A stretch of DNA of 64,000 bases from a virus (IMGVR_UViG_3300037391_000017:39415-103414), one strand, 5' to 3'. Shown: positions 54,166 to 60,078, counted from the first letter of the stretch. The notes: generated from the sequence alone by a model not told the origin. Numbers and translations are program-made.

Positions 54166-54199
54166 TTTTCGAATTTCCTAGCCAAAATTCCCTGACTTC

Positions 54200-54208
54200 T
54201 GGTATCAT
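54200..54208 (+). promoter_or_regulatory. Extended -10 promoter (TGGTATCAT) of the tmRNA gene
   Basis: Motif lies directly upstream of the acceptor piece. Confidence 0.6.
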
Positions 54209-54214
54209 GTATTA

Positions 54215-54545
54215 GATGGTCGTAAGCCCTGCAAGGGGCAAAAGGCACTGGTACTGATTTTCAGACAGGGGTTCGACTCCCCTCAGGTCCACCATATCCG
54301 AAGTAACTTCGGGTGTGTTTCGGTGAGTGCTCCACCAAACGGTTTGAGCATTGACCAAACACACCCGATCAATATGGGCCTGCCCCGGTTTCGATGAAGA
54401 CGGTATGGGATGGCAGCCAGCGATCCGAGGGAAGGATGATTCCTCGTTAAACTCCATTCAAAAACATAAACGCTACTGCTCCAAAGGCAATGGCTGCTCA
54501 CGCTTAATTGCGTAGCACAGACCCCGTGGGTCTGTTCCTCAACAC
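54215..54545 (+). ncRNA. ssrA: tmRNA, circularly permuted (two-piece); tag (A)ATAPKAMAAHA*
   Basis: The 3' part (GACAGGGGTTCGACTCCCCT CAGGTCC ACCA, ends 54294) precedes the 5' part (GGGCCTG CCCCGGTTTCGA, starts 54376). Acceptor stem has G3:U70. H2 pairs TGAAGA/TTTTCA and CGGTAT/GTACTG. A PK1-like element precedes ATAAAC and the resume codon GCT at 54472; stop at 54505-54507. Outer ends are approximate. Confidence 0.92.
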
Positions 54546-54554
54546 GGCAAAAGA

Positions 54555-54580
54555 ACCCGCGCAAGCGGGTATTTTTGTTT
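54555..54580 (+). terminator. Intrinsic terminator after tmRNA
   Basis: ACCCGC-GCAA-GCGGGT followed by ATTTTTGTTT. Confidence 0.8.
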
Positions 54581-54623
54581 CTGGTTGACAATCTGAATTC
54601 CAAAGGCTATTGTAGGGGCACTT

Positions 54624-58469: not shown

Positions 58470-58503
58470 TTCGAAAAATAGTTGTTGCAAATTTTCCAAC
58501 TAC

Positions 58504-58512
58504 TGGTATTAT
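58504..58512 (+). promoter_or_regulatory. Extended -10 promoter (TGGTATTAT) of the Pth2/RNA-array unit
   Basis: AT-rich gap, followed by AGGAG RBS and ATG at 58532. Confidence 0.65.
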
Positions 58513-58531
58513 GTCTTTAGGAGCTACTCAC

Positions 58532-58954
58532 ATGCGTAAGGCAATCGTCGGCGATCTGTAGGTTAATCAGCAGCAACCATCGTACTACTTCCTCTTTGTC
58601 CGTCAGGACATTTCCTTTGCACAACAGCTAGTCCAAAGCAACCACGCCACGTTTGAAATGGCGAAGCGTTTGCCCATTGATTACGACCAAATCCCAAATC
58701 TTGTCCTCATCGGTGTCCCCGATAAGGCCGCTTTATTCCGTGTTATCAACAAGTTAAATGACAATGCCATCGGCCATGAAGTGTTCTATGAGCCCGATGA
58801 CAACCTCGGGTTGACCGCAGTCGCGACCTACCCGCTCACGCAGGAGCAACGCCGTGTGCTTTCCAACTATCGGTTGTGGAAGTCCGACGTTGCCCCTGCA
58901 CCAATTCCCATGATCGTACCGAAATTCAAGGAGGCTGTGGCCTGTGAAAGTTAA
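58532..58954 (+). CDS. Pth2-family peptidyl-tRNA hydrolase with in-frame TAG at codon 10 (read-through required)
   Basis: MRKAIVGDL*VNQQQPSYYFLFVRQDISFAQQLVQSNHA...LVLIGVPDKAAL...FYEPDDNLGLTAVATYP...LSNYRLW; TAG at 58559-58561. Confidence 0.78.
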
Positions 58955-59573
58955 GGAACTCATCCGTCTTTTGCAAGAGGAAGACCCGGAATCCGAAGCG
59001 TGCGTGCACAACGCCGACATCGAAAGCGTCTACGCAGCGCAGGCGTACTACGACGGGCGGTTGCAAGTGCTGGAGCGTGACGCCGAGGGATACGTTGTAG
59101 GCGGTAAGTACACGTCGAAGGGCTGGAAGGTAAACATCTGCCCATCGTCTATTACCGATCAGATATGGGGCGACCCCGAGTTTAAGGTCGATTATAGTGA
59201 GCTTGGCGGCTCCGCAGAGAGGTACATCGAGTCCGACAACAAGACGCGACAGGCATCACGCGATGTCGAGAAGAAAGTTGCGATGAGCGGATTCTACCGC
59301 TGGGCCAAGAAGAAGGCCGAGGAGATTCGTGATGGTGATGGCGACATCCTTTATTCGGCGAACAAATTTTGGGAAGAGAATCTGCACGTGAACGATCCGC
59401 TTCCCGAATTGCCGAAGGGGAAGCGCCTCGATAATGAGGGCAAAGAGTATGAGTTTTGGCCGAGTGTTTGCGACCGTCAGGAGCATGGCTGGAACCAGAC
59501 GATTGAAGTTTATTGGCGCGGCGGCTGGGGCCTTCGATTTAAGAACGGCTCTGCCGATAGCGGCGAGTATTAA
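58944..59573 (+). CDS. Hypothetical protein
   Basis: AGGAGG RBS; MKVKELIRLLQEEDPE start. Confidence 0.7.
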   Translation: MKVKELIRLLQEEDPESEACVHNADIESVYAAQAYYDGRLQVLERDAEGYVVGGKYTSKGWKVNICPSSITDQIWGDPEFKVDYSELGGSAERYIESDNKTRQASRDVEKKVAMSGFYRWAKKKAEEIRDGDGDILYSANKFWEENLHVNDPLPELPKGKRLDNEGKEYEFWPSVCDRQEHGWNQTIEVYWRGGWGLRFKNGSADSGEY

Positions 59574-59615: not shown

Positions 59616-59697
59616 ACGCGGGTAGCTCAGTTGGGGTTACAGAGTGCCGAGGCGCAAGCCTCGGAGGTCGAAGGTTCGAGTCCTTCCCCGCGTGCCA
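59616..59697 (+). tRNA. tRNA-like RNA without anticodon loop (element B)
   Basis: ACGCGGG/CCCGCGT-GCCA acceptor; intact D and T arms; anticodon arm is CCGAGGC-GCAA-GCCTCGG. Confidence 0.85.
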
Positions 59698-59987: not shown

Positions 59988-60078
59988 GGGCGAGTAGCTC
60001 AGTGTTAGAGCGCCTGTGCAAAGGCCGCAAGGCCGACGCCACAGGAGGTCGGTGGTTCGATTCCATCCTCGCCCACCA
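59988..60078 (+). tRNA. tRNA-like RNA with extended GNRA-capped anticodon arm (element E)
   Basis: GGGCGAG/CTCGCCC-ACCA acceptor; arm is CCTGTG-CAAA-GGCC-GCAA-GGCC-GACGC-CACAGG; canonical D and T arms. Confidence 0.85.

Follow-up and report, generated by a model that had tools for sequence, protein, structure and literature searches.

A small gene of the Pth2 (peptidyl-tRNA hydrolase) type in a large bacteriophage opens with a ribosome-binding site (RBS), an ATG and a short leader that runs, in frame, into a TAG stop codon, and the conserved core of the protein lies behind this stop. The same arrangement recurs in a broad set of related loci, often close to phage-encoded tRNAs with the anticodon CUA, and comparison of these loci makes it probable that synthesis of the full-length Pth2-fold protein depends on the phage suppressor tRNAs. 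We refer to the early TAG as the gate, and to the whole stretch of DNA analyzed here, 64 kb in length, as the window. The window is the right-hand part of one 103,414-bp virus record (39415-103414). It derives from a large phage, of which it is a fragment, and has large structural genes, a permuted tmRNA and 23 ARAGORN calls (tRNAs and tmRNA).

The locus lies on the plus strand and begins with a putative, sigma-70-like promoter at 58485-58512 (TTGCAA, 16 nt and TATTAT, with a TG upstream), the sequence of which is nearly unchanged in the relatives L003, L058 and L001. A Shine-Dalgarno sequence, AGGAG (58519-58523), is located 8 nt ahead of the ATG at 58532, and an RBS for the leader ATG is found in related loci as well. 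From this ATG, nine sense codons (MRKAIVGDL; 58532-58558) lead to the gate, an in-frame TAG at codon 10 (58559-58561) in the context CTG TAG GTT, with G as the next base. Behind the gate, and in frame with the leader, 130 codons encode the Pth2-fold region and end in a TAA (58562-58954, the TAA itself at 58952-58954). The initial annotation of the window had described the AGGAG, the ATG, the nine codons, the TAG and the open frame to 58954, and all of its coordinates were right.

When the frame was read codon by codon, the stretch from the TAG to the core (YYFLFVRQD...QSNHA) contained no ATG, GTG or TTG, and none of the near-cognate starts CTG, ATT, ATC, ATA, ACG, AAG and AGG was present ahead of the invariant Arg. 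The first in-frame ATG behind the gate is at 58658-58660 on the plus strand; it is the start chosen by gene callers and would give a product of 98 aa. The codons thus agree with the initial annotation, which had noted both the absence of an earlier start and the position of this ATG. A start at 58658 would drop strand 1 and helix 1 (model residues 8-34), which are formed by the region behind the gate in our structural model, together with R14, Q25 and H28, which are invariant in a 45-sequence alignment (A2); the accompanying statement that such a product lacks the core is correct. Because the 58658 start would lose invariant residues, the conserved N-terminus must be translated.

Within the 103-kb contig, an RBS and ATG followed by at most 15 codons, a stop and a long coding frame with no start of its own occurs as a single case, the one at the TAG described here; there are zero cases of the same design with TAA or TGA in the contig, and a search for a second gated frame within the window found none. 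The gate arrangement is beyond chance. No stable RNA structure was found around the gate, where the fold of 58515-58640 has a z-score of 0.07 against shuffled sequences.

The arrangement was then followed across homologues. A protein search returned 67 relatives, the closest of which were all called from an internal ATG; many other relatives were called as M/V-FVRQD, which suggested that a common block lies upstream of the called starts. For the comparison at the DNA level we used 48 viral contigs, 80 metagenome contigs and 4 genome contigs together with isolate phages, and removal of duplicates left 99 gene variants from viral, metagenome and isolate-phage records. An RBS and ATG, 1-19 further codons, an in-frame stop, 5-17 codons and the core follow one another in 87 of these 99 variants. 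TAG serves as the gate in 85 of them, TAA in 2 and TGA in none; a check proposed by the initial annotation, that the early in-frame TAG be sought in homologues, is thereby answered in the affirmative for 85/99 variants. Leaders in close relatives read MRKAIGDL, MRKAMGDINDL and MRKIDEGNITGL, and since their lengths differ by whole codons, leader and gene stay in frame across the TAG. Conservation of the protein between the TAG and the first start codon holds to ~30% identity. We take the early TAG to be real, conserved and no error, because it recurs in dozens of assemblies made independently of one another and in the genomes of isolates.

The isolate phages, which were independently sequenced, also illustrate how the gene has been handled in annotation. 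It is annotated as a shortened CDS in Cronobacter phage GAP32 (MAQ-TAG), is given a start behind the gate in Acinetobacter phage ME3 (MT-TAG), and in Salmonella phage Arash (ML-TAG) appears as a shortened CDS named 'peptidyl-tRNA hydrolase'. In Serratia phage BF (L049 2977-3314; MTH-TAG) it is unannotated and falls in a gap, in Ralstonia phage RsoM2USA (L054 1907-2350; ML-TAG) it is unannotated, and in Yersinia phage fHe-Yen9-04 (L179 3477-3814) it again lies in an annotation gap. Annotation pipelines miss or shorten the gene because so few codons precede the stop. Gate and amber suppressor are found near each other in GAP32, ME3 and Arash, and presumably in fHe-Yen9-04 as well. In Arash, the CUA tRNA called by ARAGORN sits where the annotation has a tRNA-Phe. 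The two TAA-gated variants, L109:5974 (MSGFS-TAA-ATT) and L117:3159 (MSGFL-TAA-ATT), both come from AT-rich metagenome contigs, and a search of the two loci detected no suppressor tRNA.

Of the 87 gated variants, 84 have a purine directly behind the gate (A in 45, G in 39); the other 3 have C, and T is absent. The base that follows the 17 true TAG terminators of the contig is T in 5, C in 5, G in 4 and A in 3. A purine 3' of UAG reportedly favors amber suppression in E. coli (Bossi 1983; Miller and Albertini 1983).

Two tRNA-CUA genes are encoded 2.3 kb downstream, as the initial annotation had stated, and lie on the same strand; both ARAGORN and Rfam support them. The first (60876-60951, plus strand; Rfam tRNA 41.8 bits) has an A1-U72 pair, discriminator G, an encoded CCA and an atypical T-loop. 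The second (60969-61047, plus strand; Rfam tRNA 61.2 bits) has a G1-C72 pair, discriminator A and an encoded CCA, and resembles 'tRNA-TERM' of Sinorhizobium phage phiN3. Both have orthologues in related phages. A nearest-neighbor comparison with 233 typed phage tRNAs gave best similarities of 0.29 and 0.46 and no usable assignment of the amino-acid identity of either.

Many gated loci carry one to three tRNA-CUA genes at ARAGORN standard settings, often adjoining the gated gene, and the distance from gated gene to tRNA-CUA has a median of 804 nt. The association test was restricted to variants flanked on each side by 3 kb or more; in this set, a tRNA-CUA is present in the locus of 32/40 gated and 1/9 ungated variants (Fisher 2e-4, a value that ignores shared ancestry). 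Some of these tRNAs are easily overlooked. One at L028:6851-6954 carries a ~30-nt insertion in its variable region and scores 59 bits with Rfam, yet it is missed by ARAGORN at default settings; another, near 5590 in L113, has an insertion of similar length (~30 nt) in the variable region and was found by a motif scan for the anticodon loop; and in L106, two further tRNA-CUA were initially missed by ARAGORN. Since insertion-bearing tRNA-CUA are missed at ARAGORN defaults, surveys of suppressor tRNAs undercount them. A separate observation concerns L001:8365-8444, a tRNA directly behind a CUA tRNA, to which ARAGORN assigned a four-base anticodon (ctag).

The linkage is not complete. In 8/40 well-flanked gated loci, no CUA tRNA was detected in the flanks. 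For G001 (the L013 record) and G002 (the L015 record), the tRNA-bearing regions were fetched and run through ARAGORN, and no CUA tRNA was found in them; G002, which belongs to one of the eight loci, is rated 100% complete and has 31 tRNA matches. Phage XacN1 has two CUA tRNAs, yet in this phage the gene is a fused version with no gate. The eight loci and XacN1 both count against gating by a tRNA.

In one close relative, L003, the gate is bypassed. Its flanking genes are 81-96% identical to those of the window, and it retains the promoter, the RBS and the leader MRKAIGDL, together with the TAG and the nine codons that follow it, as an orphan remnant. Right behind this remnant, an Endonuclease_7 gene (PF02945, 2.8e-13) has been inserted on the minus strand at L003:5288-6054, and the Pth2-like gene now has a fresh ATG start and a new N-terminus, MTHIYIFVRQD. 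At the syntenic site between flanking tRNAs, L003 is without the block that in the window consists of the HNH-like gene and both CUA tRNAs; the record is ~36% complete, and this absence holds for the syntenic site, with CUA tRNAs possible elsewhere. L003 is in effect a natural experiment, in which a working gate and the CUA tRNAs appear to have gone together.

Taken together, the comparison supports well a suppressor-dependent decoding of one gated gene, which would operate as follows. Ribosomes would initiate at the ATG at 58532 and reach the UAG at codon 10. Where RF1 acts, only a nine-residue peptide would be released; where a phage tRNA(CUA) decodes the UAG, a Pth2-fold protein of 140 residues would be made. 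We infer that the tRNAs are expressed, charged and able to decode codon 10. Output of the protein would then be conditional on, and roughly proportional to, the amber-suppressor activity of the phage, and the gate would act as a natural feed-forward lock and key in an otherwise standard-code phage. The TAG falls in a variable N-terminal tail ahead of strand 1, and for this reason the inserted amino acid should not matter. A cost has to be set against this reading: a strong suppressor would be costly, because TAG terminates 17 genes of the phage and presumably many of its host as well, and a search for back-up stops close behind TAG-ended genes gave no signal. More speculatively, the purpose may be to supply a Pth-like recycling or rescue factor, its gene being close to that of the phage tmRNA, at a dose tied to the read-through that the suppressors impose in the infected cell.

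The initial annotation had proposed that the protein is made only upon UAG read-through, either by the phage tRNAs or when RF1 termination is impaired. The first part is strengthened by the specificity for TAG, the co-location and the L003 case, all of which point to the CUA tRNAs as the likely key, while RF1 sensing fits less well. Although both factors compete at the same codon, the data suggest feed-forward dependence on suppressor tRNAs rather than an RF1 sensor. The further proposal, a termination-sensing switch like RF2 autoregulation, is unsupported, with neither a frameshift nor a stimulatory RNA structure at the gate. Ribosomes pass the early in-frame UGA of the RF2 gene prfB by shifting to the +1 frame, helped by a Shine-Dalgarno-like stimulator; RF2 itself recognizes this stop, which closes a feedback loop. 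The phage gene is similar in that an early in-frame stop makes synthesis hang on termination versus alternative decoding; unlike in prfB, the leader continues into the gene with no shift of frame, and no stimulator was found. To our knowledge, no feedback of a Pth2-like protein on UAG termination has been described.

A different account would keep the TAG as the true stop of a minigene, with the Pth2-like frame translated by termination-reinitiation or from a non-canonical start just behind the stop, and no suppressor involved. The leaders lend this some weight, since 61/87 consist only of the ATG and one codon, as in known minigenes, and so do the codons right behind the TAG, which are ATG, GTG, CTG or ATH (ATT, ATC or ATA) in 43/87 gated variants and ATG in five loci; the eight gated loci with no CUA tRNA in their flanks would also be accommodated. 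However, reinitiation gives no reason for the use of TAG, and the gate codons stand at 85 TAG, 2 TAA and 0 TGA. In the window and its clade, moreover, the codon behind the gate is GTT or GTC, two changes from AUG, and neither a canonical nor a near-cognate start lies ahead of the invariant Arg. Reinitiation also leaves both the linkage to tRNA-CUA and the L003 case unexplained, and we consider it unlikely.

The early TAG might instead be a strong attenuator that restricts a potentially harmful hydrolase to traces arising from rare read-through by near-cognate host tRNAs, with the phage tRNAs irrelevant. A stop so early in the frame would make aborted products cheap, the gate lacks a stimulatory RNA structure, and some gated phages are without a detectable CUA tRNA, all of which would agree with low-level expression of this kind. 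For such a purpose, though, a weak RBS or a weak start would suffice, yet the RBS is strong (AGGAG with 8-nt spacing). Attenuation predicts neither the co-location with tRNA-CUA, nor the purine behind the gate, nor the joint loss in L003. We regard this explanation as quite improbable, and return to decoding by the phage suppressors as the preferred reading.

It could also be asked whether TAG is a sense codon throughout this genome, as in phages that use 'code 15', so that the Pth2-like gene would be one of many recoded genes. The phage CUA tRNAs would be expected under such recoding, as would a strong preference for TAA, which is seen on the plus strand, where the large structural genes lie (36 TAA, 7 TAG and 1 TGA; 29 TAA, 10 TAG and 12 TGA on the minus strand). 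But TAG terminates 17/95 predicted genes of the contig, high-scoring ones included, and reading through TAG hardly extends long frames. No TAG with coding potential on both sides was found in the 103-kb contig, nor any other gated frame. On these grounds we rejected genome-wide recoding, to which we assign very little probability. That the gene is a pseudogene, or its TAG an assembly error, as its omission or shortening by gene callers and annotators might suggest, is scarcely credible and was rejected in view of the 85 non-redundant early-TAG variants from independent assemblies and isolates, whose frames are otherwise intact and protein-conserved, with no further decay seen.

The relation to phages with a recoded TAG is nevertheless instructive. 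In crAss-like, Lak and other phages, TAG is read as Gln (bioRxiv 10.1101/2021.08.26.457843, PMC9523058). As is proposed for these code-15 phages, the gated locus would have a phage tRNA-CUA decode an in-frame TAG inside a standard-code host, and in both settings the in-frame stop may be viewed as a timing or regulatory device. In code-15 phages, however, in-frame TAG codons are spread over many genes, chiefly late ones for structure and lysis, and TAG has been given up as a terminator; here, there is one TAG at the start of one small gene, none in structural genes, and the 17 TAG-terminated genes among 95 remain.

Parallels exist in other large phages and in engineered circuits. In XacN1, in silico read-through of 18 amber stops found no target gene for the CUA tRNAs (PMC5852040). 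The situation is alike in that CUA tRNAs occur in a large standard-code phage, and unlike in that a conserved candidate target is visible here. A gated target of this kind escapes read-through searches because no more than 2-20 codons precede the TAG, in a frame that annotations never include. A survey of jumbo phages notes PTH2 genes with no mention of an in-frame stop (PMC7824862). Synthetic feed-forward 'leak dampener' circuits based on suppressor tRNAs have been described in E. coli and express an amber-codon gene only together with a co-regulated suppressor tRNA, much as we propose for the phage gene (PMC7969014). The circuit is engineered, whereas the phage gate is natural, is spread over many phage lineages and is tied to one protein family. 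Our literature search found no paper that describes the gated design or that joins PTH2, suppressor tRNA and bacteriophage.

The product of the gated frame is, on the strength of its profiles, its relatives and its predicted fold, a divergent branch of the Pth2 superfamily. The initial annotation had called it a Pth2-family enzyme; fold, profile and relatives favor this, whereas the PF01981 HMM gave no match. Neither the read-through product nor the 98-aa product matches any Pfam family at E <= 1, PF01981 included. Ten family members were sampled against PF01981, for which the gathering threshold is 23 bits: P0136 scored 29.4 bits and P0202 24.9, and six more scored 17-20. Against PHROGs, the unnamed family phrog_34073 and weak matches only were obtained. 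The 45-sequence profile A2, when compared with the PDB, matched 24bt_A, a 'peptidyl-tRNA hydrolase', at E 8.6e-5, followed by 2zv3 at 0.032 and 1q7s (Bit1) at 0.8, and the alignment spans the N-terminal core R-x-D ... Q-x-x-H-A. An AlphaFold2 model was obtained with a pLDDT of 91.6 and a pTM of 0.79, and the best 12 PDB matches in Foldseek are all Pth2 (probability 1.00, TM 0.55-0.71, E 5e-6 to 2e-4). The family is large, with 3,770 clusters at 50% identity (E <= 1e-3), and some members are fused to an HD domain.

Like archaeal and eukaryotic Pth2 (PF01981; PDB 2zv3, 3erj, 1q7s, 1xty), the protein is predicted to have an alpha/beta fold and contains the R-x-D ... Q-x-x-H-A motif; unlike them, the window protein has no PF01981 match and differs at two positions of interest. 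The catalytic residues of Pth2, which we take from Sulfolobus Pth2 to be the Lys of the GKGK loop and the Asp of DAG, correspond in HMM alignments to Q21/Q22 and E77, respectively. The Lys presumed to be catalytic thus aligns with a Gln in the phage protein, and the Asp with a Glu. Peptidyl-tRNA hydrolase activity is plausible.

The genes around the locus deserve a brief description. The end of the Pth2-like gene is overlapped by 11 nt by a 209-aa gene of unknown family (58944-59573, plus strand), which has a GTG start and its own AAGGAGG. This gene lies next to or near the Pth2-like gene in 29 loci, L003 included, and it is possible that it is linked to the gate. Upstream, a permuted two-piece tmRNA with the tag ATAPKAMAAHA is encoded at 54198-54598 on the plus strand (ARAGORN; Rfam RF04321, 52.9 bits at 54237-54501). 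Many related loci likewise have a tmRNA ahead of the Pth2-like gene, on its strand and at a distance of 1-5 kb, and in the window's clade the gene lies between the phage tmRNA and the tRNA cluster.

Three further elements were observed downstream. A tRNA-like gene at 59616-59694 (Rfam 47 bits) has an anticodon loop of 8 nt and received no ARAGORN call in the window; to its counterpart in L006, ARAGORN assigned a four-base anticodon (gcaa). Either a tRNA that reads quadruplets or a degenerate one may be encoded here. The tRNA at 59988-60078 (Rfam 57 bits) has a 23-nt insertion in the anticodon loop and is called Leu(aag) by ARAGORN, and Arg(acg) in relatives; it may be intron-bearing or degenerate. 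Between tRNA genes, a 168-aa frame at 60379-60885 has no Pfam match, and its DNA matches a Streptomyces phage gene annotated as an HNH endonuclease; the TAG stop of this frame (60883-60885) falls inside the first tRNA-CUA.

A broader reading would join the gate, the CUA tRNAs, the Pth2-like protein and the tmRNA into one self-regulating module. Here the Pth2-like enzyme would act on the suppressor tRNA or on what it produces, for instance by deacylating this tRNA or by clearing peptidyl-tRNAs and stalled complexes that result from read-through, and UAG-dependent synthesis of the enzyme would determine how much amber suppression occurs during infection. We hold this reading to be doubtful. If it were true, the locus would parallel RF2 autoregulation, with tRNA as its basis, and a standard-code phage would thereby rewrite host termination in a controlled way.

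Amber suppressor tRNAs are found in many large standard-code phages, and their purpose has so far been obscure. The locus described here offers a concrete and conserved candidate target for such orphan amber suppressors, namely one small Pth2-fold gene behind an early UAG. If dependence of this gene on the phage suppressors is true, it would represent a natural genetic-code switch that acts on a single gene, and would provide a ready-made part for synthetic biology. It could also be an evolutionary stepping stone to full stop-codon recoding in phages.
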